Virus record (IMG/VR): IMGVR_UViG_3300045119_000200
Location: 1-64,000 of that record
Length of the DNA: 64,000 nt
DNA from: a virus
Direction: 5' to 3' (one strand)
Below the pieces are notes generated by a model. That model searched no databases. It was not told the DNA's origin and saw only the letters and a program-made list of their open reading frames with translations. Made by a program: the position numbers and the translations under genes. Position 1 is the stretch's first letter, and every line of letters starts with the position of its first letter. This document shows positions 4,240-43,440 of this stretch, piece after piece.

Positions 4240-4765
4240 ATATTTGCTACTATTGCTGAGTTCGACTCTAAACGCTATAAACTTTTCTTTATCCTTTCGG
4301 ACGTTCAATCAATTACGATTTCTTCCGTAGTTTATCCGTTGGCAATAGCAATAGGTTTGTTTAAACAGTATATTGCTACGAATACGTTTGGGCACAATCC
4401 CCCTGATATATCCCCTACTTATTGGGTCATTCTCATATTATCGGTGTATTAATCCGGTTCCGTTAAATTCAATGAACTTGCAAGGCGATTATAACAATTG
4501 TTTTATATCTGTTTTCAGCTAAATTTGGCTTACTGTAGGATATTAAACAAAGATTTATAAAACTTAAACCTTTCCTGTTTACGCTTGCTTTAGGGGTTTG
4601 GTACGTGATCGCTGTACTTTAAAAATTGCTTTATCTGTTTTCGATAAATTGTAGTCTCTACTATAGGACAAAGCAATTTACTTTCCATTAAACGGGCTCG
4701 TTTCCCATTCCTAAAGTTTATATTAATGAACTCTTTTCTTACTGGTATTAACCAGTGTTTCAGTT
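4240..4765 (-). ncRNA. Candidate large structured non-coding RNA or 5' leader
   Basis: No credible ORF, many nested inverted repeats, directly downstream of a promoter at 4774-4781. Confidence 0.45.
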
Positions 4766-4773
4766 TGTTAAGG

Positions 4774-5495
4774 CAAAGATATGTAAAAGATTTTACACTC
4801 ACAAACAAAATTTAAAACTTTAACACTTTTTAACATTTGTTGGTTATAATTGTATGCTGTAGCCCTTATATTGCGAGGTCAAGCCAAAAACACTTTATTA
4901 TATTGCTATAATATACACACCTGTATCAAATACAACTCAATTAAGAATTGCGTTTCTCAACTCATACAAACCAGTCAAATTATGACAGTGATTGAAGTTT
5001 AGTTTTTAAATGATCGTCTATTCTTTGTCTACCTGATTAAGCAGTTTAGTACTTAATCAACGCTTTGAGCCTAAAGACCTATTTTTATAGTCGCTCAATC
5101 GACTTGTTTTTGTTGGGACAAATGTAGTAAAACATTTTGTTAAGTTCCAAATCTAAAAGTGTTAAAGTTTTGTTAAAGTTTCTAAAACCCCGTAACTGGT
5201 AGTGTTTCAGCCTTTACTTCTTTTAACTTGTTTTCATAAATCTTTGTTCTTTCATGCCCTTTAACACGTCGTCCTGATACTGTATCAATTAAGTTATATC
5301 TTACTGTTTGGACCTCGGTAACTGTATAGTATTGTTTAGAGGTGCAAGAGGATAAACCAAAAATAATAAGTGCGATTGCTAAAAAGAATCCCGCAAAGAT
5401 TGCTTTGTCTAATGTTTTCATAGTGTATATGTTTAAAGATCGTTTGTTCTGTTTTGTTGCAGCAAAGATATGTAATGAGAGTGATACAAAACAAG
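4774..5495 (-). promoter_or_regulatory. Three tandem leftward Bacteroidota sigmaA-type promoters (-7 boxes 4774-4781, 5119-5126, 5463-5470)
   Basis: Minus-strand TATCTTTG / TACATTTG / TATCTTTG with TTG/TTTG about 20 bp upstream (-33 element). Confidence 0.7.
5182..5421 (-). CDS. Lipoprotein
   Basis: Signal peptide with lipobox LSSC; directly after promoter 5463-5470. Confidence 0.75.
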   Translation of the reverse strand: MKTLDKAIFAGFFLAIALIIFGLSSCTSKQYYTVTEVQTVRYNLIDTVSGRRVKGHERTKIYENKLKEVKAETLPVTGF

Positions 5496-10148: not shown

Positions 10149-10688
10149 ATGAGAAGTTCACTTAAAGCATTGAGACCTGTAAATCTTAGTTTAGTTGGAG
10201 CAATGGACCCAGCAGCGATTGGAGGTGTATATCACAAAGTTAGAGAATTAGAAGACAGATATGAAAACAGTCTTAATGCTGCCGGAGTAAGTGTAGGATT
10301 GACAGATTTGACAGCTGCTAAGTGTGTGATTACAGTTAATCATCCATGGAAGATTTATGTATTCAATTTAACGACAGTTTTTGCAACGGGTACATATACG
10401 TTCTCCTTTGTTGAATCGGCACCTAATACAGAATCGGTTGTGGATGTTACAAGCATTGATGTAACACCTGCTACTGCCACAATAGCTGTCGCTGGTACAA
10501 GACAATTGGTTGTAGCGTTTACTCCAAGTGATGCATCATCTAATGCTGTCACTTATACATCTTCTGATGTAACAAAAGCCACTGTAAGCGCGTCAGGTTT
10601 AGTTACCGGAGTTGCTTCAGGTTCAGCTACAATTACAATTAGATCTGCAAATGGTAAAACAGATACAGTAGCGATTACAGTATCATAA
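10149..10688 (+). CDS. Virion protein with C-terminal bacterial Ig-like (Big_2) domain
   Basis: VTSIDVTP...P.DA....VTYTSSD...ATVSASGLVTGVASG.ATIT. Confidence 0.88.
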   Translation: MRSSLKALRPVNLSLVGAMDPAAIGGVYHKVRELEDRYENSLNAAGVSVGLTDLTAAKCVITVNHPWKIYVFNLTTVFATGTYTFSFVESAPNTESVVDVTSIDVTPATATIAVAGTRQLVVAFTPSDASSNAVTYTSSDVTKATVSASGLVTGVASGSATITIRSANGKTDTVAITVS

Positions 10689-16082: not shown

Positions 16083-16337
16083 ATGAATAATACTCAAATA
16101 CGAAAAGTTTCTGTGGGTAATGGGCATCCAGATCAAATGATGCATTACCAAGTAGGTAAAGTCTACACGATCAATAATAAACAATTTGAACTTACTGATA
16201 TTCTACTGGTCCAAGAACTTTTGGAAAAAGGAATTCTAGCCTATCATCTATATGTATTTGATGGTGAAGTAAGACTATTGTGGAAAACTCTGATCAACCT
16301 TCCTATGGTGATCGAAAACAATATTTCATTCGAATAA
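16083..16337 (+). CDS. Conserved hypothetical protein
   Basis: IRKVSVG...MHYQVG...LWK....P..IE, first gene of packaging operon. Confidence 0.7.
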   Translation: MNNTQIRKVSVGNGHPDQMMHYQVGKVYTINNKQFELTDILLVQELLEKGILAYHLYVFDGEVRLLWKTLINLPMVIENNISFE

Positions 16338-16338
16338 T

Positions 16339-16920
16339 ATGAAGTCGGTTAATTTTATAATCGTTGAGGTTGAAGAAGCTTATAACAACGAAAAGAAAAT
16401 CGGTGACGTTTCAATTGTAGTAAATTCAACTATTGAAAGCGTAGAACATATTAATCGTATAGCAAAAGTAATTACGTCACCCTCTTTCACCCCGTTGAAG
16501 GAAGGTGACGAAGTTATTATACACCATAACATATGTAGATTGAGAAACGGAACCAAAGGTGGGAAAGTACAAAGTGATTATCATATCGAAGGAAACAAAT
16601 ATTTTGTTCCATTGACTGAAGTATTTATGTACAGACGAGATGGCGATTGGATCGCACTCGCCCCATATTGTTTCGTCGAACCAATCAAGGATGAAACCAA
16701 AATGATTGGATCAATTATCGTGCCAAACTCCGGAGAAACTCATAAAGGTATGATCTCACATGAAGGGATCATGAAATATTCAAATCCTGAATTAAATGAA
16801 TACGGGATAAACAATGACGATCATATCTCGTTTTCTGAAGATTCAGAATATGAATTTATGATTGACGGAAAAATATATTACAAGATGGCTACTAGAGACA
16901 TTCTTGGAAAATTCGATTAA
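16339..16920 (+). CDS. GroES-like tandem-domain protein
   Basis: LKEGDEVIIHHN and second D.I.F....EYEF.IDG..YY.M GroES-like halves. Confidence 0.65.
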   Translation: MKSVNFIIVEVEEAYNNEKKIGDVSIVVNSTIESVEHINRIAKVITSPSFTPLKEGDEVIIHHNICRLRNGTKGGKVQSDYHIEGNKYFVPLTEVFMYRRDGDWIALAPYCFVEPIKDETKMIGSIIVPNSGETHKGMISHEGIMKYSNPELNEYGINNDDHISFSEDSEYEFMIDGKIYYKMATRDILGKFD

Positions 16921-16921
16921 C

Positions 16922-19780
16922 ATGGAACATTTAAGTGAACATATTGAGAGTAGTATAGTTACGCTGCTCGAAGGTCTTGACCTTGATATACAAATTGACT
17001 ACAGAATTCAGAATGATAGTGAGTATAAGAACTTTATCGGTTCTCATATAAATATTGAACTGAAGACCAGAGCCAAGTTGAAAGGTAAGATCAAAAACGT
17101 GGAGGATAAGGAATTCACCATAACATATTTCGTTGTTAACGGGAAGGAAAGAACTCTTACGGAAAAGACAATAAAGTTCACCTCTGTTAAAACAGCCAGA
17201 GTATTCGATGAAGAATCAAGTATCTTGGAACCTGATAAAATGAAACAGATTATCGGTTCCAAGATTTCTTCGTTTAAATCAATCACGACAATCCTTAATC
17301 GTTGGGCCTCTTCTCCGAATGCACCAAGTAAGGATAAAGTGAGATATTATATGGATAAAATAGTTGAGTCCGGTGAAAAAGCTTTACAGTTCTTATACAA
17401 AGCTTTGTCTCACGATATTGACTATGATTCTATTGAAATCCATAAGATTCAAAATGCTGCCGCTGCAAAGCCTCTTATCTTAGATGCTATTTACGATCTG
17501 GATTCAAATATCAAAGAGATCAAAGAAAAGCTGCTGTCGGATGATATGACATTGGTTGAACGAGAATTCAGACTGGGTTATCCAGAACGTTTTGCTAAAG
17601 GTGAATTTTTCCCAATAGGGAATTACTTCAAAGACTGGTATGATGCCCCTACAGATTCCGTAAAAATCTGTCCATTTGGTACAAGTGGGCAATCCATAGT
17701 CTTAGAAGATTTGAGGATCATTTTACCGAAAAAGCCAAGGAATAAAAAAGAGATTCTTTTCTCTGATTTTCCGAAGAAAGAACAGTATTGGAGACGACCA
17801 GAAATCCCCGATACAATCACACCTGATAATCAGGATCAATGGGATGATTTCATTAAAGAAGAATTCAGACGTAGACGAGAAGGAATTTGGTTCATGAATA
17901 ACGGTGAAGCTGTTTATTTAACAGGGAATCATTATTATGCTTTGACCCATTGTAAGATGTTGGATACCGGTGGTTACATGGATTATCGTGAAGCACAGAG
18001 AGATATTTTTTATCATGTTCAGGCGTGTATCGTTGATGATCGTTGTCTTGGACAACTGTTTGTTAAATCAAGACGTACAGGATTTACATACATCATTCTT
18101 TGTTGTTTCGCTAATGACTCAACTGGTATGAGAAATAAAAACTTTGGAATCACTTCTAAATCTGACGATGATGCTAAAAAAGCGTTTATCAAATTCAGAT
18201 ATATGTTGTTGAACCTTCCTTTCTATTTCATTCCGTTGATTAAAGGTAAAGTCGATTCTCCGAAAGAGTTTGAGTTTGGGGCTCCAATGAGCAACTCTCG
18301 TGCTACAAAGAAAAGTAAAACTTTCGTATTAGATGATTATCTGAATAATCTTATTGACTATGAGCCAACTAAAAATGACTCTTATGATGGTCAAGCGTTA
18401 TTCCGTTATCTTGGAGATGAAGCAGGGAAGTGGAAAAAACCAATGGATTATATTCAGCATTTTGGTCAGATCTCTCCGACCATGAACCAAGGTGGTAGAA
18501 TCGTTGGTAAATCATTTATCGGATCAACTGTAGGTGCAATGAACCAAGGTGGATCTCAGTTTAAAGAAATGTGGAATTCTTCTGATGTTAAGCAGAGAGA
18601 TCCGGTTACAAGAATGACAGGTTCAGGATTGTACAGATTCTTTTTGGCAGCACAGAAAAACATGGAGGAGTTCACAGACAAATATGGAAAATGTCATGAA
18701 ATTGTTCCAGATGTTCCTACTTATAATGTAGCCGGCAAACTTATCAGAGTTGGTGCTATTCATTATTTGGAATCTCAGGAAGGTATGAAAAAGAAGATCT
18801 CAGATAAATCTCTTAACGAACAGTACAGAGCGTATCCAAGAACAATCGATCATGCTTTCCGTGATGAAGCAAATGAGTGTGTTTACAACATCACCAAGCT
18901 TTATGAACAAATGGAACACAATGATTTGATGGAAGAAAACCAGAAATATATCATTGGTAATTTCGAATGGGTCAATGAAATTGATGGAGATGTGTTCTTC
19001 GCTCCGAATCCAAATGGTAGATTTAAGGTAGCGTGGTTACCTTCAGCTATTGATGGAACAGAAGGATTGGCAAACAGAGTTGAGCAAAGAGGAGATAAAT
19101 TCTATCCTTTGAACTTAGAATGCGTGAGATTTGGTTGTGACCCTTTCTCATTGAAATCCACACATGGAGAAGGATCTAAAGGTGCTATTCATGGAAAAAC
19201 AATTCTGATTCCGGAAGGAGGGGCACCAAGTAATGAATTCGTTATTGAATATATTGCTCGTCCACAGGATGAAACGATTTTCTTCGAAGACGTTATTAAA
19301 GTGATCAGATATTACGGGGCACCAATCCTTGTTGAATCAAACAGAATCGATTTACTTCGTCATATGAGAAACAGAGGTTATAGACCGTTTGCGATGAATA
19401 GATTAGATAAACCACTTAATAAATTGAATCCAAACGAATTGGAATATGGTGGTCAAACAATGTCTGGAAAAGATATTCTTGATTCACATATGAACGGTAT
19501 TGGAGTTTGGATTGAAAAATATGTTGGATTATCTGTGACTGAGGAATTTAGATTAGAAGGAGAAATGGGAAATATGCCTTTCAACGAAACGTTAAAAGAC
19601 TGGTTGAAATTCGATCCGGATAATAGAACTAAGTACGATGCTACTATTTCAAGCGGTTTGGCAATAATGGCCTGTTCCACTGAAAAGTACAAAGGTGTCA
19701 AAAAAGAACGTAAGCCAAAAATCGTTAACTTTGTAAAAAAATTCAACAATAACGGAAACGTCGGACAAAGAATAAATTAA
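16922..19780 (+). CDS. terL: Terminase large subunit with long N-terminal extension (probable start 16922)
   Basis: Walker A KSRRTGFT, GDEAGK, GST, nuclease GCDP, LVESN, D.TISSGLA; upstream of portal. Confidence 0.92.
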   Translation: MEHLSEHIESSIVTLLEGLDLDIQIDYRIQNDSEYKNFIGSHINIELKTRAKLKGKIKNVEDKEFTITYFVVNGKERTLTEKTIKFTSVKTARVFDEESSILEPDKMKQIIGSKISSFKSITTILNRWASSPNAPSKDKVRYYMDKIVESGEKALQFLYKALSHDIDYDSIEIHKIQNAAAAKPLILDAIYDLDSNIKEIKEKLLSDDMTLVEREFRLGYPERFAKGEFFPIGNYFKDWYDAPTDSVKICPFGTSGQSIVLEDLRIILPKKPRNKKEILFSDFPKKEQYWRRPEIPDTITPDNQDQWDDFIKEEFRRRREGIWFMNNGEAVYLTGNHYYALTHCKMLDTGGYMDYREAQRDIFYHVQACIVDDRCLGQLFVKSRRTGFTYIILCCFANDSTGMRNKNFGITSKSDDDAKKAFIKFRYMLLNLPFYFIPLIKGKVDSPKEFEFGAPMSNSRATKKSKTFVLDDYLNNLIDYEPTKNDSYDGQALFRYLGDEAGKWKKPMDYIQHFGQISPTMNQGGRIVGKSFIGSTVGAMNQGGSQFKEMWNSSDVKQRDPVTRMTGSGLYRFFLAAQKNMEEFTDKYGKCHEIVPDVPTYNVAGKLIRVGAIHYLESQEGMKKKISDKSLNEQYRAYPRTIDHAFRDEANECVYNITKLYEQMEHNDLMEENQKYIIGNFEWVNEIDGDVFFAPNPNGRFKVAWLPSAIDGTEGLANRVEQRGDKFYPLNLECVRFGCDPFSLKSTHGEGSKGAIHGKTILIPEGGAPSNEFVIEYIARPQDETIFFEDVIKVIRYYGAPILVESNRIDLLRHMRNRGYRPFAMNRLDKPLNKLNPNELEYGGQTMSGKDILDSHMNGIGVWIEKYVGLSVTEEFRLEGEMGNMPFNETLKDWLKFDPDNRTKYDATISSGLAIMACSTEKYKGVKKERKPKIVNFVKKFNNNGNVGQRIN

Positions 19781-19782
19781 AA

Positions 19783-22299
19783 ATGAAAATAGATAAAAAA
19801 CAAGTTATACCAAACATAGGATTTCCTGATCATCTTGCTTCGGATGAAACAAAGAATACTGAAGAGTTTGGTTTACAAATGGCTCAGGCCATACAGTACG
19901 AATGGTTCCGTCGCCCCAATGGTGGCGGATCTTGTCCGTTCTATGATCAAAGAGACGAATATCATAAACTAAGATTGTACGCAAGAGGTGAACAATCAAC
20001 CAAGATATATAAGGATTTACTTAACGGTGGTGATGATGATTCGTACTCAAACTATGACTGGCGACCGTTACAAATTATTCCTAAATTTGTCAAGCTGATT
20101 GTTAACCAAATGAGCGAAAGACTGTTTGATATTAAAGCTGAAGCAACTGATAAATTTTCGACAGATTTAAAAGACGGTTATAGAAACGCTTTGCAAAGTA
20201 TGATGATCGCTCGTCCTATTATGGAGGAAGCTAAGAATCAATTGGGAATCGATATGTTCCCTGAAGGATTCGAAACATATCCTCATACTCAGGAAGAAAT
20301 TGATCTTCATATGCAACTTGAATATAAGCCGGCTATTGAAATCGCCTGTGAAGAAGCGTTGAAGTTCACATTAGATTTGAATGATTATGCTGAAACTCAA
20401 AGTAAAATAATTGAAGATATTGTTGTCCTTGGTAAAGGTGGATTGAAACATTCTACAGACCTTGGTAAAGGAATCGCTGTTAAATATTGTGATCCAGCAA
20501 TGATGATCAATTCTTTTGCTAGAAAAAGAAATTTTGAAGACGTTTATTATTACGGGGAAGTTGAAAGAATTTCAATCAATGAGTTGAAAAGAATTTCTAA
20601 CAATCGTTATACAGATGACGAGTTGAGAGAAATGGTCGCTCAATCTTCTGAGTTCTACAGATATGAGAACAATACGAATGAAGGAAGTAATATCAATTCT
20701 GATGACTTCGCTGGAATGATGGTAGACGTAATGAATTTCACATTCAAATCAACCAACACTCTTTCTTTCAAAAAGAAGTACATGAGCAATGGTGGATTCA
20801 AAATGACAAAGAAAGAAAGTACTTTCAACAAAGGGAAATATGCCGAAGGGTTTGATGCTGTAAAGAAAACGATTGATGTTTGGTATGAAGGAACGATTGT
20901 TCTGGGTACTGAATTTATATTCAATTATGGATTATGTAAGAACATGATCAGGCCTGAAGGATTGCTTAATATCACAATTCCTAATTTTATTTTCTTTGCT
21001 CCGGAACTTTATCAAAACAGAACCAGATCAACAGTTCAGAGAATTATTCCTTATGTTGATCAGATGCAACAGATTCATATTAAGATTCAACAATTGGTTG
21101 CTAAAGCAAGGCCGAATGGTATATTTATCGATATTGATGGATTAAGTGAAATTGATTTAGGTGATGGTAATATTCTTACACCGCTTCAATTGATCAAAAT
21201 TTATGATCAGACTGGTAATATTATTGGTACATCTGTGACAGCTGAAGGCGATTATAATTACGGAAGATCTCCGATTCAAGAACTTAAAAACGGTATTGTT
21301 TCAGGACTTCCAGAATTGATTAATCTTTACAATCATTATATGAACTTAGTTCGTGATGCAATAGGAATTCCTGTGGGAGCCGATGCTTCTACGCCTCACC
21401 CTGATATGCTTGTTGGAGTTCAACAACAATTGGCTCTTAACTCAAATACAGCGTTGAGACATATTCTTGATGCATCATTGAGTATTAGTCAGAAATTAGG
21501 GAAAGGACTCGCATTGAGATTGAAAGATATTTTCAAATATCCAAATTTGAAAAATGTTTATATCAATGCGATTGGTAAATTAAACGTCGATGTGTTGAAA
21601 GCATTGGAAAATTATCATATTCATGATCTTGGTATTAATATTGAATTAAAACCAGATTTCCAAGAAGAACAACAATTGGAAATAAATATAAACAACGCTA
21701 TAGCTAAGGGGCTTATTGGTGTAGAAGATGCGATCGATATTAAAAGTATCAAGAACATCAAACTTGCGAATCAGTTGTTAAAAGTGAGAAAAGCTAAGAA
21801 AGAAGCAACCGAAAGAGCGCATCAAGAAAAGATGATTCAGGTACAAGGTCAAAGTCAAGCACAAGCTGCTCAGGCCGCTGGTCAAGCAAAACAACAAGAA
21901 ATTCAAATTGGAGCCCAAGCTGAGATCGCTGTTGTTGATGCTAAGAAACAGGCTAAGTTAGCAGAGATTGATGCTGAGACACAAGCTAAAGCGATGTTAA
22001 TGGAAAAAGAATTCCATTATAACATGGTGTTAAAAGGAATAACTGATTCACAAGCGCAACAATTACAAGAGCAAGCGGAGAACAGAAAAGATGCGAGACA
22101 AGATAAGCAGAACACCCAGATGTCTGCTATTCAAGAACAAAAAATGAAAGGACTACCTGCTCAGGATTTTAGCAAAGGTGAAAACCCTGCGATGCCGACA
22201 GAGCCGATACAGAATGCTCAACAAGATCTTGGGACATTCGAAAGTAGTAACGATCATGTAAACGGTGATATGGGACTTGGGGATTTAGAACCACAGTAA
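19783..22299 (+). CDS. Portal protein
   Basis: Follows terminase; LRLYARGEQS..YK, DW.P..IIPKFV, Q/A-rich coiled C-terminus. Confidence 0.88.
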   Translation: MKIDKKQVIPNIGFPDHLASDETKNTEEFGLQMAQAIQYEWFRRPNGGGSCPFYDQRDEYHKLRLYARGEQSTKIYKDLLNGGDDDSYSNYDWRPLQIIPKFVKLIVNQMSERLFDIKAEATDKFSTDLKDGYRNALQSMMIARPIMEEAKNQLGIDMFPEGFETYPHTQEEIDLHMQLEYKPAIEIACEEALKFTLDLNDYAETQSKIIEDIVVLGKGGLKHSTDLGKGIAVKYCDPAMMINSFARKRNFEDVYYYGEVERISINELKRISNNRYTDDELREMVAQSSEFYRYENNTNEGSNINSDDFAGMMVDVMNFTFKSTNTLSFKKKYMSNGGFKMTKKESTFNKGKYAEGFDAVKKTIDVWYEGTIVLGTEFIFNYGLCKNMIRPEGLLNITIPNFIFFAPELYQNRTRSTVQRIIPYVDQMQQIHIKIQQLVAKARPNGIFIDIDGLSEIDLGDGNILTPLQLIKIYDQTGNIIGTSVTAEGDYNYGRSPIQELKNGIVSGLPELINLYNHYMNLVRDAIGIPVGADASTPHPDMLVGVQQQLALNSNTALRHILDASLSISQKLGKGLALRLKDIFKYPNLKNVYINAIGKLNVDVLKALENYHIHDLGINIELKPDFQEEQQLEININNAIAKGLIGVEDAIDIKSIKNIKLANQLLKVRKAKKEATERAHQEKMIQVQGQSQAQAAQAAGQAKQQEIQIGAQAEIAVVDAKKQAKLAEIDAETQAKAMLMEKEFHYNMVLKGITDSQAQQLQEQAENRKDARQDKQNTQMSAIQEQKMKGLPAQDFSKGENPAMPTEPIQNAQQDLGTFESSNDHVNGDMGLGDLEPQ

Positions 22300-34923: not shown

Positions 34924-37900
34924 ATGGACGAATTTAATGAACAAGTAAATCCAACAGATAATGCTACTCCTAATCAGAGTGGCATTTCTGGTAATGGAGA
35001 AGATCCTAAATTAAATCCGAAGGATAAAGAAAGGTTAACAAAGGCTGTTATGCAAATGACAAATGATGGTATCGATGATGAAACTATTAAAAAGGCCGTA
35101 TCTAATTTTAAAAATAAATATGGAATCAAACCAGCTGCTACACCAAAACCTGTTGAAACAAAACCAGTAGGTGCAACAGCTGTTTCCGAACCTATTCAAA
35201 AACCAACCACACAACCTAATCCAGAACAGCCTGAAATTGGGGGTACAGTTTCACCAAAAACCGACTCAAATCCTAAAGAGGTAGGTAAACCTACACTTGA
35301 AGTTGGAGAGGTCAAAAGCGAAGGAATTGTGCCAGAACGTCCAACGACTTATCAAGGGCTTCCGATTACTTATGGAGAAACTGATGATAGTGGTGTTGTA
35401 GATTTTGGAAACGGAATTAATTTACCAGCTTCAGTTCTTCCTAAAGAAGAAAAAGCACAACCTGTTATTCGTGTTGCTGAATATATTTCTTCCCTTGGTC
35501 CAGATGGTAAACAACCGGTTGACATAACTGGTCAAACAATTACCAAAGATGCTGAGAACAAGATGTATGAAGATTGGCAGACGAAAGGTTGGGGTAAGAT
35601 TGTTAAGACTGATGAAAACACAGGTCGTTTCATTTTTGCTCCAAATGAAGAAGGTAGAGATAAGATCAAAAAAGTTTATGAGGAACAGCTTGGTTACAAC
35701 AAACCGATGAAAGAAGAGGAAGGCGATTTCCTTGGTGAATATGCTGCTGACATCCATAAAAAATACGGAGTCCTTCTTACCAATGAAGATCGTGCGAAGC
35801 TTGGAACAAAAGAAGGGAGAGATTCCCTTGAAATTGATCTTCAGGCTAAACAACTGGTTAAAAACAATCCGAACCTTTCTTATGATCAAGCATGGGATCA
35901 AGTTGCCAACGAATATTCTATTAATTCAAATGAAACAAGTCGTGATCTTGCTTCCAATTTCTTTTATGAAAGATTAACTCAAATGAGATGGGGGAAGGAT
36001 GAAGATACTAAAGATGAAGCTGAATGGATTAAAAGTACGATGGGTAATCAGGATATGATGCAACAGTTCGGTCAATTCTTGCAATCCGATGAAGGAAAAG
36101 CATATTCAACTTCTACGAATAAGTTCTTATCCACTATGAATCAGAAGGATATGAAGGATGTTGTGAATGCTTTCTTCCAATATGAGAACAAACAGAATAT
36201 GATCAATACTCAGGCCAACATCGAACAATATAAAGATACTCAGGCTAAATTGGTAAATTCTGCTAAATCTGGAAATGTTGATGAAGCAAGACAAGTTCTT
36301 CAGTCTCTTAATGAATCTGGTGAAAAAATTCGTAGTAATGATACTCAGGCCCAAAACCTTTTCTTACAACAACAAGCTATCAACGGAGTTTTCACCGAAG
36401 CGAATTATTGGGAAGATAAAGCTGGTGAATATTATGGAGACGTTGAAAATGGAAAACGTACTGTAGAAAATGTGATCAACGGATCTTCTCTTATGGCGAC
36501 CAACGCTGTTAAAAGAACTGCCGGAGGAATTCTTTCTGTGTTCTTGTCACCAATGACAATGATGGGAGATGAAAATAAACAGGATTATTACGACCTTGTT
36601 CGAGCAATGGGTAAACCGTTGGAAATGAAAGGTGTGAAACTTCATGATGCTTTTTATTCTCAGGAAGTCGGTAAGGACAAAAATGGAATTGAATACGTTC
36701 GTCTTGACGATGGTAAAGTTTATCAACGTACTGAAGATGGACAAATGCAATATCTTACTAAAGAAGAATATGATCTTAATGATATTAAGTTTGATAAAAC
36801 AGAACATGAATGGAGTACTACAGGTATAGCCAACGCTGTTCAATCATTTGGATGGGATGTTTACATGGCCGGTGGAATCGGAAACGTTGTGACTAAACCA
36901 ATCGCAGCATTATCTGAGTATGCAGCTGTAGCAAATGCAACTAAGAACTTAGCCAGAGCCGGTGTAGCCATCGGTGAAGAATCTGCTGTAACAAGAGGTT
37001 TAGCTAATTTCACAAGAGCAATGAGATCTCCTCATACAGCTACGAATGCAGGTTTCTTCACTCAGATGTATCAGGATAATTTGATCAAAGCAAAAGATGC
37101 TGGAATTGAATCTGACCTTGGTGCATCAATGTATGCAACTTTAAATTCAGCTTTTGATTCATTCTTGATTTCAAAAGTTGTTCCGGAGTTTAAAATGGGA
37201 CAATTGAATAACCAAGTAAGAGCGATCACAAGAAATCTTGCTGAGAACAAAATGGCTTCAGCTTCCCAAGGAATGTATAACTTCCTGAAAGAAACCGCTC
37301 CGAACATGGCTCATACTTATTTGACCATGTTGGCAATTGAAACCAAAACAAAGTTGACAGATACTAATTTGAATACTTTGACAGATGCTCATTTTAACGT
37401 AGATAATTCAGAAAGTATTTTTGCTTCATCTGCTAAAGGAGCGTTACCATTGGTGCTTTTCTCTATGATCAGCAAATCTCCAATGATGATGCGAAACAAA
37501 GCTGTGTTGAATGAACAACTTGTCGATTTATCGAAAATGGATAAAGATCAGATCATGGTGAGTTTAGCAAGACAAGGAGATCATATCTTCCCGTTATTGA
37601 AGAACGAAGCACAAAATGCATATTTTAAATCTTATGGTGATGAAGTAAATAACATCGCTGATAGAATTAAAGAAAAACAGGTATTGATTCAGAAAATTCC
37701 GAACTATGAAAAATATAGTGATAAGGATCTTACTGATATGACCGATTTAATGGAACTTAAACAGAAAAAGCAAACTGAGATTGATAATGCTGATGGTGCT
37801 TTTAAAAGTTCTTTAAACAAAGATATTAAAAATATTGATTTACAAATTGAAGAAATAGCAAATGGAAAAACAGGCACCAGTACCAAGACCGGATCTGAAA

Positions 37901-40900
37901 AAGGTCCTGCGGGAGCAGAAGGCAAAGCCGGCAGCGGGGAAACCGAGAACAAGAAGACAGAAACGTTAATAAAAGATCCAGCTGTAGTAGAACGTCTTAA
38001 AAAGGCAGGAGTTACAGATGAAATATTAGCAGCACTTCCGGAGAATTTCCATATCAATGATAGATTGTTGATGGGAGATAAAGACGAACCATTAATGCAA
38101 AGACTTGCTGAATCGACTTATGTAGGAGGACGAAGCTATAACACTGTTACAACTTCTGAAGGAAGAGTAACTAAATATGATAACGCTCGTGTAGATCTTA
38201 ATAGAATATTAGGATTTATTTACGGAACAAAAGATCGTAATACTGTTCATGAAGCGGCTCACGCTGCTACGATTGTAGCGATGAATGATATCAAAGTTTA
38301 TAATGAACTTCCGGATAATAAAAAGGATGGTCGTTATACACCAGAACAGGCGGATGCAGTTGATAGCTTGGAATTCTTTGCTAAATACATGAAAGAGAAG
38401 TTAGATACAGGTAAGATCAAAGCTGATGGAGTAAGTACTTATGGATTGACAAACGGGTTTGAATTTGTTGCTGAATTCATGTCTAATAAAAAATTCAGAA
38501 ATTGGATATTGACTTCAGAATATGAAGCAGGTATTAAACAAAATAAAGAACAAAATATTGTTAGATCGATCTATGACAAAATTATGACAGTGATTGGTCT
38601 TAAATCTAAAGACAAAGAGGTTCTTGTAAAAGACATGGGATTCCAGAAAGATATTGAAAGAGACATCAATACTCTTCTTGAACACCAAAGAAGAATTTAC
38701 GGAGAAGCTGAGTTTTTAACCCCTGCTGAACGTGATAGATTAATAAACGAACAAAAAGCTAAAGATGAATCGACCAAAACAGAAAATTCCGGAACAGAGT
38801 CAACGCCAAAAGAAACAGAAAGAACTCCTGTATCAGAAGAAAAGAAAGCAAAAATAAATGATATTGATCAACGTCGAGATTTAGAACTCAACAAACTTGA
38901 TGAACCGTTACATCCGGTTGAAGGAGTTACAGAGAACTACGAACAGGCGATGAAAGATTATAAGGAGAAACTTGATAAGTACAATAACGAATTCGAAGCG
39001 ATTGATGCAAAATATGATGCTGAGATTGATGCGATTGATACTACTCCTAAATCTGAACCATATGAAGGTGCTGCTGAAATTCACAAGAACTCAAAGGAAC
39101 TTACTGAAATAGGAACCGATCAAGAATACAAGGAGTATTTAAAAACAGTTTTTCCAGAAAGTTCAATGACAGATGTGGTTCATCATTTGACTAAACATGA
39201 CTTCGAAGCTTTTGAAAGAAAACCTGAAGGTGAAACAAATAAAACAGAAACTGAAGGTATTCATTTTGTGGAAGAGCAAGCCGTAGAAGAATATAAAAAT
39301 GTTTTCGGTAAGAATAAAAAATCTGTAATATTAGATTTTAAAAATCCTATATACACAGAAGCTAATGTTAAGACTGCTGAAAAATTAGAATTTTTAACTA
39401 AGGATGGAATCAAAGAATTTGAAGAAAAAGGATATGATTCAGGAATTATAGTAAGGAAAAAAGATACTGAATATGTCGCTTTTCATCCTGAACAAATTCA
39501 CATTCTTGGAAGTAAAAAAGATGCTGAGGATTTCAGAAAATGGAAAGAAGGGAAAACTCCACCGGATGATTTCAGTCGAATTGATTTATCAGAGCAACTC
39601 GGAATCAATAAGGTGAACGATTTCTTAGATGGATTGAATAAAAAGCTTGATGACTTTGGTAAAGACAACTTGGGGATGAATATCCCTGTAGTTGTTCTTA
39701 AAGGAGCGTTGACTGCAATGAGAGGTGCTGTTAAAACCGCTAAAGTAGGGGCAGATGTAATTTCTGCTGGTTTGAATCACGTTCGTGAAACAAGTTGGTA
39801 TAAAAAATTATCTGATGAACAGAAGAAAGAATTTGAAGACAAAGGAATATTGGCTCACTTTGACGATTTACAAAACAAAAAGGCTGCTGAAGCTGTTGTA
39901 AAAAATCAAACTGAAGGTAAATCAAAACCTGTTAAAACTCAGGTGAGAGAATCTTCAGGACAAGCGGATACTTCTAAGAAAGTAAATATTTCTGAAAAAG
40001 GAATGCTTCGTGAGAAATTCAAAAACTTACAGAGAGGTTTTAAAACCGGTGCTAAAGAAGTTCAAGAATTGAAAAAAGGATTCATTGATCAATTGAAAGA
40101 AGACATCAAAGGTCTTGGAAAAGATATGAACCAAGGGGAAATCAATTCGTTACTTAATCAGGTTGGAAAAATCAATGATAAAAACATTGCTGAGGTAGAA
40201 GCTGTTGTGAACAGAGTGATCGATAAGATCGAAGCCCGTCAGGATCGTAAAGAATTATCTTCTTTGAAAAACTCTTTGAAGAAGTTCGGTAAATCTAAAG
40301 GAAAAGCAGTCCCAAGAAATATCAGAGATCTTGCTCAAAATGCTACGATTATTGACGAAAGATATTTATCTGAGAAAAGTAGAGAGGAATATAAGGACGT
40401 ACTGGCTGAAATTAGGGATACATTTCGACCAAGCAGGGACGATAATTATAGAATGGTAGATTATGATCGGGCGATGGATAAACTGGCAAAATTGAACGAA
40501 GAGTCGGAAGCTGCTAAAGTGGAAGAATTGGTGGAAAAAATGGGAATTGATGTAACTGGATTGACAACTAAGGAAATCAAAGATCTTTGGAGAGAAGAAA
40601 ATGCAGACTTATACGCTGAGAATTTATCTGAAAAAAAACAAAAAGAAGCACATGATGCTTTTATAAATCAAGCTGAGTATTCTCAAATTGGTTTAGAATA
40701 TGCTGAAACAGATGGGATGACCGGTAAAGAGAAAGCAGCTTTGAAAGTTTTGAAAGAAATGAAGTTCAAAGATCTTCCTTTGGAAACGATCAAACAATAT
40801 ATCAAGATTGCTGACAACATTATAACCAATAAAGATTTCTCTAATGCAGGAGCGATCGTTGCTAAAGTAAAAGCTGACAGAAATGTTGCTTCATTCATCA

Positions 40901-43440
40901 ACTACATCAATTCCAAAGGGATTAAACCTAAAAGAATTGACAGAGATCAAAATGCAGATTCAATTCTTGGTGTTCCAGTTTCATCTGTGATCAATCCTTT
41001 AGAATGGGTTAAACATGGTGTTGATTATATGACAACTCTTAATGTGTTCATGGAAGGTGTGATGGGCGGATCTGAAGCCGGTGCGAAGTTGTATAACGAT
41101 GCAGGATTCTTTGATATGTCGAATGCGAGAGTAAGAGCCACTGTAAGAAAAACGAATTTCGATAATTATTACAATGGTTTGGTTCATAAGCTTTCTAAGA
41201 AAAATCCAGCAATCACCGAAGGGAAAGAAGTTGTAAAACGATCTATCTTCGGAACATTGTTACAAGCCGATAGAGAATCTTCGGAAAATATGGAGTTTTA
41301 TAAAAAGTCATATATTGAGAAATCAATCAAATCATTGGAAGCATATTCCAGTAACAAACAGGCTCAGGCCAAGATTGAGATCTTGAAAGAAACTTTGAAC
41401 CAATTGAAAGACGTAAATACGAAAGAAGAGTTAATCGACTATCTGAAAACAAATGAACCAGATAACTTCCGTTTATTAAAAGCAGCAAGTGATTATTTCC
41501 TAAGACATTCTCAGGAATTCTCTGATAACTCTTATTTCAACCATGGTGAAAGATTTGATCCACGTACAGCAGATGATTTCTATTTACCACTTACACGTCA
41601 ATCGTTGGTAAATAAATCAATGAGAACTAAAGTTGATGAAGTGAAGGGAACTGTAGCAAGTAGTTTCAATCGTCCTTCTCAGGCGATGTCTGGATCAGTA
41701 TTTTCAAGAGAAAGACAGGCCAGACTTCAGGAGAGCGAAACGATTAATTTCGACTTCGATTCAATGGTAAGTAATAAAATGGGAGAGCAACTTTATGACA
41801 TGGAGTCAGCACAAGAGATTTTAAAAATGAAAGCTATCCTTACACATCCGGAAATGAAGAAAGCATTCGGTTCAACAATAGCCAGTTTAACTGACAAAGC
41901 GTTGGATAAGATTGCGATTGATTCTGGTGTAGCGATGAACTCTTCAACAAACATTGAAAAGAACATCATTAAGATCGAAAGAGTTACCAGAAAGATTGCT
42001 TCAGTGAATGCTCTTGGTGGTGTAGATCAGTATTTAAAACAGTATCCTTCCGTTATTATCGGAGCCGGTATTCGTTTGGGAAGAGATATGCATCTTTTAC
42101 CAAAATATATGTTCACCAACAAAGCTGATATCGAACTTTTGAAAATGAGTTCAATCAGAATGAGAAAAGAAGCAGATGCCGGAACGAAAAGAGTTTCTGA
42201 TGATGTGAAGTTCACTGAGTTGTCTGTAGCGGAAAGAAACGCTGTGCAACGTGTAGCAGTTGATCTATCAAAAGGTCTGGGGATTGGAATAGACAAAGCG
42301 AGAGAGATCTCAATGTTGTCATTAAGAATGGGTGACGTTAATGCAGCGGGTACAACGTTCTTGGCTTATTACCATTCATTCCTTTTAAAACATGGAGTGA
42401 AGGAAGCAGACATTGACATGAGAACTGAACACGCTAAAGTTGAAACAGATCCTGTGAGAAAAGATGCGTTAGCTTATGCACAACATATGATCAACACGAC
42501 TCAGACTTCTTCTGACTTATCTGAAGGATCAAAAATGGCAACATCTCCTCACGTTATGGCGAAGATCATGAGTGGAATTTTGATTCCGTTCTCTACGTTC
42601 TCAAATAACGCTATGATCCGTTTGGCGAAAGCTGTGGGAAATGTGAGTAGAAGTCCTAAAGAAAATTCGAAAGAAATTGCTGCATCTCTAACCGAGATTG
42701 TTGCATTCCAATCGATTAAAGCTTTAGCGATTGCTCCGGCCGCTGCGATTATAGGAAGTTTGATTTTCGGAGGTGATGATGAAGAACAGGAAAATGTTGT
42801 TGACTGGGCTTTCCAAGTAAATAAAATGGCTTCAGGTGTTATCGGTGACGTTAACCCTGCTCCGGATTCATTTGATATCGATGCGATCAACTACATGGTT
42901 TATTTGAAAAACCGTGATAAGATCAAAGAACAGATTGGATGGGAAGGAGATTTTTCATATCGTGATTATGATATATGGAGAAAGAAATCAGCTGCGAATG
43001 CTAAGAAGAAAGGATTGGCTACACCAGAAGTTCCTTACCATTTCTACAGATTTGGTGATCAGGACGGATGGGATGTCATGAATGGAGCAAAATCAGATCT
43101 TGGGATGTATGACATTCCTAAGAAACAGGTTGAGCGAACAGTTGAAGCTTGGGATGTATTACTTGACGGTAAGAAAGAAGGTTATAATGATTTTGGTGGA
43201 AAAGAAACATACAACTTTGGTGATGAACATAGAAATTTATTAATGTTCTACACATTGTATGAAACTGCTGCATCAATTGGTTTATCAGATGCTACAAGCC
43301 GAAGAATGATTGAGAAGCAATTTGATAAAATCAAACGTGAATCTAAAGAGGATAAAGACAAGAAATCTAATCCTAAGAAAGATAATTACAAAAGTTTTGG
43401 AAAAGATTCTTATGGTGCCAGTGGGTACGGAAAGTTATAA
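34924..43440 (+). CDS. Giant virion ejection / polyvalent protein with zincin-like and ADP-ribosyltransferase-like domains
   Basis: 2838 aa; HEAAH...EFVAE (38248-38475); HH.T..DFEAF..GIHF..NP..GYD..EYVAF.P.QI (~39160-39520). Confidence 0.75.
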   Translation: MDEFNEQVNPTDNATPNQSGISGNGEDPKLNPKDKERLTKAVMQMTNDGIDDETIKKAVSNFKNKYGIKPAATPKPVETKPVGATAVSEPIQKPTTQPNPEQPEIGGTVSPKTDSNPKEVGKPTLEVGEVKSEGIVPERPTTYQGLPITYGETDDSGVVDFGNGINLPASVLPKEEKAQPVIRVAEYISSLGPDGKQPVDITGQTITKDAENKMYEDWQTKGWGKIVKTDENTGRFIFAPNEEGRDKIKKVYEEQLGYNKPMKEEEGDFLGEYAADIHKKYGVLLTNEDRAKLGTKEGRDSLEIDLQAKQLVKNNPNLSYDQAWDQVANEYSINSNETSRDLASNFFYERLTQMRWGKDEDTKDEAEWIKSTMGNQDMMQQFGQFLQSDEGKAYSTSTNKFLSTMNQKDMKDVVNAFFQYENKQNMINTQANIEQYKDTQAKLVNSAKSGNVDEARQVLQSLNESGEKIRSNDTQAQNLFLQQQAINGVFTEANYWEDKAGEYYGDVENGKRTVENVINGSSLMATNAVKRTAGGILSVFLSPMTMMGDENKQDYYDLVRAMGKPLEMKGVKLHDAFYSQEVGKDKNGIEYVRLDDGKVYQRTEDGQMQYLTKEEYDLNDIKFDKTEHEWSTTGIANAVQSFGWDVYMAGGIGNVVTKPIAALSEYAAVANATKNLARAGVAIGEESAVTRGLANFTRAMRSPHTATNAGFFTQMYQDNLIKAKDAGIESDLGASMYATLNSAFDSFLISKVVPEFKMGQLNNQVRAITRNLAENKMASASQGMYNFLKETAPNMAHTYLTMLAIETKTKLTDTNLNTLTDAHFNVDNSESIFASSAKGALPLVLFSMISKSPMMMRNKAVLNEQLVDLSKMDKDQIMVSLARQGDHIFPLLKNEAQNAYFKSYGDEVNNIADRIKEKQVLIQKIPNYEKYSDKDLTDMTDLMELKQKKQTEIDNADGAFKSSLNKDIKNIDLQIEEIANGKTGTSTKTGSEKGPAGAEGKAGSGETENKKTETLIKDPAVVERLKKAGVTDEILAALPENFHINDRLLMGDKDEPLMQRLAESTYVGGRSYNTVTTSEGRVTKYDNARVDLNRILGFIYGTKDRNTVHEAAHAATIVAMNDIKVYNELPDNKKDGRYTPEQADAVDSLEFFAKYMKEKLDTGKIKADGVSTYGLTNGFEFVAEFMSNKKFRNWILTSEYEAGIKQNKEQNIVRSIYDKIMTVIGLKSKDKEVLVKDMGFQKDIERDINTLLEHQRRIYGEAEFLTPAERDRLINEQKAKDESTKTENSGTESTPKETERTPVSEEKKAKINDIDQRRDLELNKLDEPLHPVEGVTENYEQAMKDYKEKLDKYNNEFEAIDAKYDAEIDAIDTTPKSEPYEGAAEIHKNSKELTEIGTDQEYKEYLKTVFPESSMTDVVHHLTKHDFEAFERKPEGETNKTETEGIHFVEEQAVEEYKNVFGKNKKSVILDFKNPIYTEANVKTAEKLEFLTKDGIKEFEEKGYDSGIIVRKKDTEYVAFHPEQIHILGSKKDAEDFRKWKEGKTPPDDFSRIDLSEQLGINKVNDFLDGLNKKLDDFGKDNLGMNIPVVVLKGALTAMRGAVKTAKVGADVISAGLNHVRETSWYKKLSDEQKKEFEDKGILAHFDDLQNKKAAEAVVKNQTEGKSKPVKTQVRESSGQADTSKKVNISEKGMLREKFKNLQRGFKTGAKEVQELKKGFIDQLKEDIKGLGKDMNQGEINSLLNQVGKINDKNIAEVEAVVNRVIDKIEARQDRKELSSLKNSLKKFGKSKGKAVPRNIRDLAQNATIIDERYLSEKSREEYKDVLAEIRDTFRPSRDDNYRMVDYDRAMDKLAKLNEESEAAKVEELVEKMGIDVTGLTTKEIKDLWREENADLYAENLSEKKQKEAHDAFINQAEYSQIGLEYAETDGMTGKEKAALKVLKEMKFKDLPLETIKQYIKIADNIITNKDFSNAGAIVAKVKADRNVASFINYINSKGIKPKRIDRDQNADSILGVPVSSVINPLEWVKHGVDYMTTLNVFMEGVMGGSEAGAKLYNDAGFFDMSNARVRATVRKTNFDNYYNGLVHKLSKKNPAITEGKEVVKRSIFGTLLQADRESSENMEFYKKSYIEKSIKSLEAYSSNKQAQAKIEILKETLNQLKDVNTKEELIDYLKTNEPDNFRLLKAASDYFLRHSQEFSDNSYFNHGERFDPRTADDFYLPLTRQSLVNKSMRTKVDEVKGTVASSFNRPSQAMSGSVFSRERQARLQESETINFDFDSMVSNKMGEQLYDMESAQEILKMKAILTHPEMKKAFGSTIASLTDKALDKIAIDSGVAMNSSTNIEKNIIKIERVTRKIASVNALGGVDQYLKQYPSVIIGAGIRLGRDMHLLPKYMFTNKADIELLKMSSIRMRKEADAGTKRVSDDVKFTELSVAERNAVQRVAVDLSKGLGIGIDKAREISMLSLRMGDVNAAGTTFLAYYHSFLLKHGVKEADIDMRTEHAKVETDPVRKDALAYAQHMINTTQTSSDLSEGSKMATSPHVMAKIMSGILIPFSTFSNNAMIRLAKAVGNVSRSPKENSKEIAASLTEIVAFQSIKALAIAPAAAIIGSLIFGGDDEEQENVVDWAFQVNKMASGVIGDVNPAPDSFDIDAINYMVYLKNRDKIKEQIGWEGDFSYRDYDIWRKKSAANAKKKGLATPEVPYHFYRFGDQDGWDVMNGAKSDLGMYDIPKKQVERTVEAWDVLLDGKKEGYNDFGGKETYNFGDEHRNLLMFYTLYETAASIGLSDATSRRMIEKQFDKIKRESKEDKDKKSNPKKDNYKSFGKDSYGASGYGKL

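Follow-up and report, generated by a model that had tools for sequence, protein, structure and literature searches.

A phage large terminase with a fused two-unit putative small-subunit module and an inserted RimP-C-like Sm-fold barrel

What precedes the family core of the large terminase (TerL) encoded in the viral record IMGVR_UViG_3300045119_000200, and could it be the small terminase (TerS) of this phage? The stretch analysed here, which we call the window, is the first 64 kb (positions 1 to 64,000) of this 72,812-bp IMG/VR record, which carries direct terminal repeats and is rated complete. A sequence-only reading, made from the letters and the translated open reading frames (ORFs), had taken the ~230 residues ahead of the ATPase region for fused small-subunit repeats with an inserted RimP-C/Sm-like domain, suggested to be host-derived, all in a single TerS-TerS-TerL chain. 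The length was well judged: PHROG 6681 (terminase large subunit) matches the protein only from residue 240 (profile positions 13-751 of 758, E 6.1e-149), and therefore about 235 residues lie upstream of the family core. We found that these residues comprise two tandem units related to a stand-alone phage gene, the first of them interrupted by a β-barrel, and all of them fused to TerL. On the evidence presented below we consider it probable, at roughly 0.6, that the protein is a large terminase with a fused two-copy small-terminase-equivalent module and a grafted nucleic-acid-binding Sm/RimP-C barrel.

Two hairpin units fused to TerL

Once the insert is set aside, residues 1-230 form a helical domain of ~155 residues composed of two hairpin units; one such unit measures ~70-100 residues. 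As shown in Table 1, an AlphaFold2 (AF2) model of residues 1-250, built from a 36-row alignment (mean predicted local distance difference test, pLDDT, 80.3), contains four long helices, with the barrel placed between the first and the second. W128, S131 and P135 are invariant across an alignment of 36 TerL proteins (A2), made of the window protein and 35 relatives from a collection of 5.8 billion proteins. The start of the window protein lines up with the starts of all these relatives in the alignments.

Table 1. Features of the terminase gene and of its two neighbours in the window
Feature	Coordinates	Strand	Residues	Basis or remarks
Whole TerL ORF	16922..19780	+	952, stop included	ORF list, translation; PHROG 6681
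Unit 1, first helix	16922..16999	+	1-26	AF2 helix 5-20; conserved at the start of all relatives
Inserted RimP-C/Sm-like β-barrel	17000..17221	+	27-100	Short helix plus five strands; alignment gap, PF17384, AF2, Foldseek
Unit 1, second helix, and conserved W..S.NAP linker	17222..17323	+	101-134	AF2 helix 104-129
Unit 2, acidic linker and GYPERFAKG junction motif	17324..17611	+	135-230	AF2 helices 137-163, 173-205
TerL core, family ATPase and nuclease region	17639..19759	+	240-946	PHROG 6681
GroES-like co-chaperonin gene	16339..16920	+		Pfam Cpn10, PHROG 13932; conserved upstream neighbour fixing synteny
Portal gene	19783-22299			PHROG 6547, E 4e-165; starts 3 nt past the TerL stop

The second unit is the clearer of the two. 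We compared an alignment of the N-terminal domain alone (A3; 36 sequences from IMG/VR loci, 155 profile positions) with two alignments of a family of stand-alone proteins of ~100 residues (A4 and A5). Against A4, hhalign returned a probability (Prob) of 98.5% (E 2.5e-15) over 87 columns, covering window residues 141-227, and against A5 a Prob of 98.4% (E 6.4e-15), also over 87 columns; taking all comparisons of unit 2 with the stand-alone family, Prob was 98.4-98.6% over 87 columns. The stretch so matched (17351-17602) is the one that the sequence-only reading had likened to a separate small gene just upstream of terL in related Flavobacteria phages, and the likeness runs from end to end. The reading had also proposed an earlier, degenerate copy, and this too is recovered: residues 1-26 joined to 101-134 match A4 with Prob 94.8% (E 5e-8, 43 columns), both helices of unit 1 aligning to the corresponding helices of the stand-alone protein. 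The junction created by removing the insert falls in the hairpin loop of that protein. Likeness of this copy to the second one is weaker, as discussed below.

A HMMER search with A3 over 1.84 billion representatives gave 71 matches, among them full-length and contig-truncated TerLs and two kinds of shorter, complete proteins. Those of ~94-123 residues match profile positions ~64-153 and end in G(F/Y)AE.(F/Y)A. Those of 156-177 residues match positions ~9-152 and, when aligned, prove to contain two copies of the unit; they stem from Logan, ENA and NCBI records, on contigs as long as 63.6 kb. For three of these double-unit proteins (P0082, P0091 and P0098) no relatives were found in viral contigs, and for P0098 none in metagenome contigs either. 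A word-based search for shorter relatives found only two, many of the short proteins in that search being cut at a contig end.

The single-unit form was also met as a gene of its own. With one stand-alone protein as query, 60 loci were found in IMG/VR, and in all 60 an ORF of 94-107 codons ends right past the junction motif. In 57 of them tblastn places a TerL core downstream, the usual order being GroES-like gene, small gene, TerL core (first aligned residue near window residue 255) and portal. In four loci (L087, L089, L091, L105) 1.2-1.9 kb separates the small gene from TerL, and in three others (L095, L097, L099) the GroES-like and small genes are present and no TerL core was found within 4 kb downstream. 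As a side observation, the gap in L087 is filled by a reverse-strand gene of 361 codons (4306-5391), which breaks the otherwise tight pairing of small gene and terL. A 96-codon ORF that lies between the GroES-like and small genes of L101 was considered as well, and has no relation to the N-terminal domain. The N-terminus of the window protein gives no tblastn match at 1e-5 in the 60 split loci.

Cultured phages show both arrangements. In Cellulophaga phage phi46:3 (Pachyviridae) the 99-residue gp093 is encoded between the GroES-like gene and the gene for a TerL of 775 residues (gp094), and Tenacibaculum phage Gundel_1 has a 103-codon gene, gp075, in the equivalent position. Gp093 belongs to PHROG 20415, of 'unknown function', and is matched by A4 (Prob 89.9%, E 1.7e-6, 72 columns) and by A5 (Prob 86.8%, E 4.3e-6, 73 columns). 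Profiles of the fused domain give non-significant values against the single gp093 and gp075 (Gundel_1) sequences (Prob 0.3-4.6%), so that the link from the fused domain to gp093 appears only via the intermediate stand-alone family. Phi46:3 and the 60 IMG/VR loci (L087-L146) thus have a homologous hairpin protein of ~100 residues directly 5' of a TerL that starts where the window core starts; compared with the window protein they have two polypeptides, one unit and no barrel. Relatives that encode the unit separately and lack the insert, which the earlier reading had proposed to look for, exist.

The fused form is equally well represented. In all 80 IMG/VR loci found by an N-domain search, the domain lies in one ORF of at least 544 codons together with TerL, and the same fused two-unit domain is present in the TerLs (876-879 residues) of the Elemovirus Flavobacterium phage vB_FspP_elemoA, Maribacter phage Panino and Cellulophaga phage phi38:1 (Callevirus). 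Because the domain and TerL share a single ORF in 80 of 80 loci, the fusion is a character of the lineage, common to the window and these cultured phages, and not an error. The TerLs of Elemovirus, Panino and phi38:1 type, annotated only as 'terminase large subunit' or 'hypothetical protein', are 44-48% identical to the window protein from its residues 95-102 onwards, where their tblastn alignments begin, and their first 26 residues are homologous as well. Pachyviridae TerLs of the phi46:3 type and that of Gundel_1 align only from window residues 234 and 253. In total, tblastn against 50,697 phage records found annotated TerLs in 87.

Models of the stand-alone protein agree with this picture in shape: a hairpin followed by a C-terminal helix (pLDDT 81.5). 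That C-terminus is a short G(F/Y)xE(K/R)(F/Y)AKK helix, whose fused counterpart, GYPERFAKG (residues 219-227), is the hinge that leads to the TerL core. A two-copy complex prediction of the stand-alone protein scored 0.00, a 'no answer' that counts neither way. A3 had no significant match among PDB sequences, the fold search with the N-domain model gave generic helical bundles only, under the tool's bar for helical folds, and no viral model (BFVD) was matched by Foldseek at E<=0.001.

The barrel insert, its integrity and its spread

Between the two helices of unit 1, in the loop of the first hairpin, lie 74 residues that are missing from the cultured fused TerLs. The alignments with Elemovirus, Panino and phi38:1 show one clean gap of this length opposite residues 27-100, with homology on either side, and because of this the insertion can be taken as real and its borders as sharp. 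Pfam PF17384 (RimP C-terminal SH3) matches residues 30-95 with 28.1, 30.9 and 33.1 bits in three scans, passing the gathering cut-off of 26.3 bits each time, and is matched at E<=0.01 by 7 of the 36 proteins of A2. Seven NCBIfam RimP models also match the insert, through their C-terminal ~70 positions (best E 3.2e-4) and with scores far below their cut-offs; no other NCBIfam family does so. The sequence-only reading had placed a RimP-C/Sm-like domain at 17024-17206, inside the insert as now delimited.

The predicted structure points the same way. In the AF2 model the insert has a helix at 32-38 and five strands between residues 42 and 95, with core blocks at pLDDT 83-92. Foldseek lists RimP of M. 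smegmatis (5gl6_A) as its top PDB match (E 1.2e-3, 71 columns, root-mean-square deviation (rmsd) 2.3), followed by chains of Gemin6/7, Edc3, Hfq and LSm. The modelled barrel superposes on four RimP structures (5gl6, 7afi chain X, 8bh7 and 1ib8) over 69-73 residues with an rmsd of 2.1-3.0 Å, with 12-19% sequence identity to solved RimPs; matches to Sm-fold proteins (Hfq, LSm, the Edc3 LSm domain, Gemin6/7) span 54-59 residues, fewer than those to RimP. A search of the ESM Atlas with the insert gave scores of at most 0.84, under the tool's trust level. The absence of any Sm/SH3-like fold, which had been named as the outcome that would undo the proposal, can be set aside, and that the insert is an Sm-fold barrel closest to the RimP C-terminal domain is secure.

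Is this, then, a working piece of RimP? The short helix and five-strand barrel are common to both, the nearest sequence families are RimP models, the nearest structures include RimP on 30S assembly intermediates (7afi_X and 8bh7_A), and the domain is basic. It could be imagined that the barrel retains RimP-like activity and binds host 30S or rRNA, and that the terminase, or an N-terminal fragment of it, disturbs or exploits ribosome assembly apart from packaging. However, the two-domain architecture of RimP is absent here, because a Pfam scan of residues 1-240 at E<=10 lists the C-domain alone and no RimP N-terminal domain. The barrel is seated instead in the packaging enzyme of a phage, within a hairpin loop, and is absent more than once among sister lineages, its identity to solved RimPs is low, and LSm and Hfq barrels match almost equally well. 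We regard a ribosomal role as very improbable.

An assembly error was the other outcome that could have undone the proposal. Logan contigs from three other runs, belonging to two other studies, bridge the insert junctions without insertions or deletions: one (X2) covers 16849-17210 and bridges the 5' junction, another (X3) covers 16929-17451 and bridges both, and the third (X4) covers 17057-17258 and bridges the 3' junction, with parts of the stretch free of contig cover in runs X2 and X4. Between 16951 and 17404, 23 differences are listed, and 20 of them are at third codon positions. Together with the single ORF found throughout the IMG/VR loci, these contigs exclude an artefact. Run X1 may be the source sample; in it two contigs overlap by 26 bases at 16992-17017 and none bridges the 5' junction. 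We noted that this overlap falls exactly at the 5' border of the insert; the meeting point may reflect a strain variant branching there.

The barrel is not shared by all relatives. In the 35 relatives of A2 the loop holds a barrel in 12, an unrelated stretch of ~40 residues in 1, an acidic stretch of ~20 residues in 9 and nothing in 13. The 12 barrels are 31-66% identical to that of the window. Of the 80 loci kept from IMG/VR, 4 are matched via the insert, and the insert alone had no match at E<=1 in the 50,697 GenBank phage records, at the sensitivity of BLAST. On a maximum-likelihood tree of the TerL core (38 rows, careful search) the barrel is patchy, requiring 7 changes (6-7 in bootstrap trees); its carriers form one clade in 0 of 200 bootstrap trees, and all lie within one well-supported clade of 31 rows. 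This pattern fits either one gain followed by repeated loss, or exchange of the N-terminal module by recombination. The loop between helices 1 and 2 (window residues 26/27) is a hot-spot of length variation, as seen in relatives P0014-P0022, P0027 and P0017, and its stretches of ~20 and ~40 residues may be what is left of lost barrels or may have been inserted independently.

So variable a loop, filled in such different ways and with a barrel scattered over the tree, is what would be expected if the insert were a neutral passenger in a permissive site that tolerates filler, with no selected function. Against this, the barrel stays in frame down to ~31-35% identity among copies, its core blocks are predicted with confidence, and 5 of the 8 differences listed inside it among near relatives are at third codon positions. 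Moreover, all 13 copies are basic (net charge +1 to +8, isoelectric point (pI) 8.2-10.1), while both the helices on either side and the stand-alone units are acidic, the latter with a median pI of 5.1. We find a passenger without function quite improbable.

Is the helical unit a small terminase?

A small gene just upstream of terL occupies the classical position of TerS, and this is where the stand-alone homologues are found: the TerL core follows on the 3' side in 57 of 60 loci, and gp093 lies directly 5' of TerL. A review of TerS (PMC9611059) describes a helical hairpin as the core of TerS, and the TerS of the T4-like phage 44RR, the gp16 partner of a T4-type TerL, as a simple hairpin with no helix-turn-helix, which is also how our unit is modelled. 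The window unit differs from T4-family gp16 in being duplicated and fused to TerL, and there is no sequence match, nor a match among those listed by the fold searches, between the two. No TerS match was found among 10 neighbouring ORFs of the window and 2 small flanking genes, the scan covering these 12 ORFs out of the whole genome; this is weak negative evidence against another TerS candidate. Because no TerS family matches the small protein, the label 'TerS' rests on position, fusion and hairpin fold, and we consider the identification of the unit as TerS plausible.

Several observations weigh against the reading given at the outset, and they concern each of its parts. As regards the helical module, neither the N-domain nor the 7-9 stand-alone proteins scanned have a TerS family match in Pfam, PHROGs or NCBIfam, no PDB sequence matches the unit or the N-domain, and no TerS chain appears among the best 50 rows listed of either fold search, which contain generic helical hairpins instead. 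The unit is acidic and, in the models, made of long helices only, with no helix-turn-helix, which is unusual for a TerS that recognises DNA. Unit 1 bears a modest likeness to unit 2 (Prob 74.6%, E 2.7e-5, 41 columns), and A4 matches Gundel_1 gp075 weakly (Prob 19%, E 0.0012, 55 columns). As regards the barrel, 6 of the 13 insert-bearing proteins fall short of PF17384 at E<=0.01, and when the 13 insert sequences are run as a profile against PDB sequences, the matches are to Edc3 LSm domains (E 0.002-0.02), with RimP absent. Because that search favours Edc3 LSm over RimP, 'RimP-C-like Sm-fold barrel' is the limit of what can be claimed securely, and the host origin suggested by the sequence-only reading is a conjecture. 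Finally, sister lineages do without the barrel, which is therefore dispensable; its patchy spread shows that it is not needed for packaging as such. Of the single TerS-TerS-TerL chain proposed from the sequence, the two-unit fusion thus stands, and a match of the unit to known TerS families (Pfam, PHROG, NCBIfam, PDB) does not.

Some of these same observations (no TerS family match, an acidic unit with no helix-turn-helix) are also what one would expect of a lineage-specific regulatory or docking domain of TerL that is sometimes split off, serving in portal or procapsid attachment, in auto-inhibition of the nuclease or in folding with the GroES-like protein, whose gene keeps its place beside the terminase genes. 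SH3-like barrels frequently bind peptides, and the barrel would then be a protein-protein adaptor. Speaking for TerS instead are the position of the small gene directly 5' of terL, the hairpin that PMC9611059 gives as the TerS core fold, and the lack of another TerS candidate among the 12 neighbouring ORFs, a scan that stops short of the whole genome. We hold the docking domain to be a possible explanation and a less favoured one.

If the small-terminase reading is correct, the hairpin unit would be the small-terminase equivalent of the lineage, minimal and T4-gp16-like in having no helix-turn-helix. Fusion would set the stoichiometry at two units per TerL and ten per pentameric motor. The basic barrel, seated at the tip of the first hairpin, is predicted to stand out from the acidic bundle of helices; there it could add nucleic-acid affinity to an otherwise acidic module and serve as an optional head that binds nucleic acid and assists the motor in engaging genome ends at the initiation of packaging. 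More speculatively, and here we are doubtful, the protein might be a single-chain holoenzyme in which the units of five TerLs form a ten-unit TerS-like ring in cis above the motor, five barrels at the hairpin tips replace the helix-turn-helix in recognising genome ends or an RNA cofactor, and the split, double-unit, fused and fused-plus-barrel forms are successive steps of evolution.

The head module and the phage lineage

The terminase gene lies in a phage head module in the order GroES-like gene, TerL, portal; TerL starts with an ATG one base beyond the GroES-like stop codon, and the portal gene adjoins on the other side. The same order is found in the Elemovirus phage, Panino and phi38:1, and the GroES-like neighbour also accompanies the split-gene loci; we noted it beside the terminase genes in all relatives examined. 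The window GroES-like protein has 193 residues and, because Pfam Cpn10 covers only residues 110-191 while PHROG 13932 matches the full length, can be described as a GroES-like protein with an N-terminal extension of ~100 residues. Directly 5' of this gene there is a small ORF of 84-93 codons (window 16083-16337, L101 2902-3177, L087 3138-3419), which recurs in these distant relatives and has no Pfam or PHROG match. Elsewhere in the window we observed a very long ORF of 2838 codons in the structural region (34924-43440) and a 179-residue protein (10149-10688) whose Ig-like domain (PHROG 215 and a large number of 'major tail protein' families) is of a type that occurs on structural proteins of phages.

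The window protein has no Pfam terminase match at E<=1, PF03237 (Terminase_6N, T4-type) is matched at E<=0.01 by 3 of the 36 proteins of A2, and no match to a PDB sequence was obtained with the TerL family profile at E<=0.01. An intein interrupts the TerL core in 6 of the 36 (P0004, P0005, P0008, P0009, P0017 and P0034, of 1223-1301 residues) and also in loci L047, L064 and L070, as judged from Pfam Hom_end_hint, Hom_end and LAGLIDADG_3; the window TerL has none.

A literature search, with most subscription journals outside its coverage, gave no account of a terminase that carries a RimP domain, nor of TerS and TerL fused in nature. The protein is best described as a large terminase to which a putative small-subunit module, present in two copies, is fused, and into which an Sm/RimP-C barrel is grafted. 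The barrel is a domain otherwise matched only by models of a ribosome maturation factor and is here seated in a packaging enzyme; at BLAST sensitivity the barrel is seen in no cultured phage of the 50,697-record collection. How small and large terminases engage is debated, with regard to stoichiometry, to the symmetry mismatch with the motor and to the hand-over of DNA. A presumed small subunit that is met in several forms (a gene of its own, a duplicated protein standing alone, a tandem fused to TerL) offers a series for comparison and for experiment, and cultured members are at hand for the split form (phi46:3) and for the fused form (phi38:1 and the Elemovirus phages). The reading assigns a testable putative function to PHROG 20415 and its relatives, a widespread 'hypothetical protein', and it would explain why Bacteroidota phages of this lineage have no annotated TerS.

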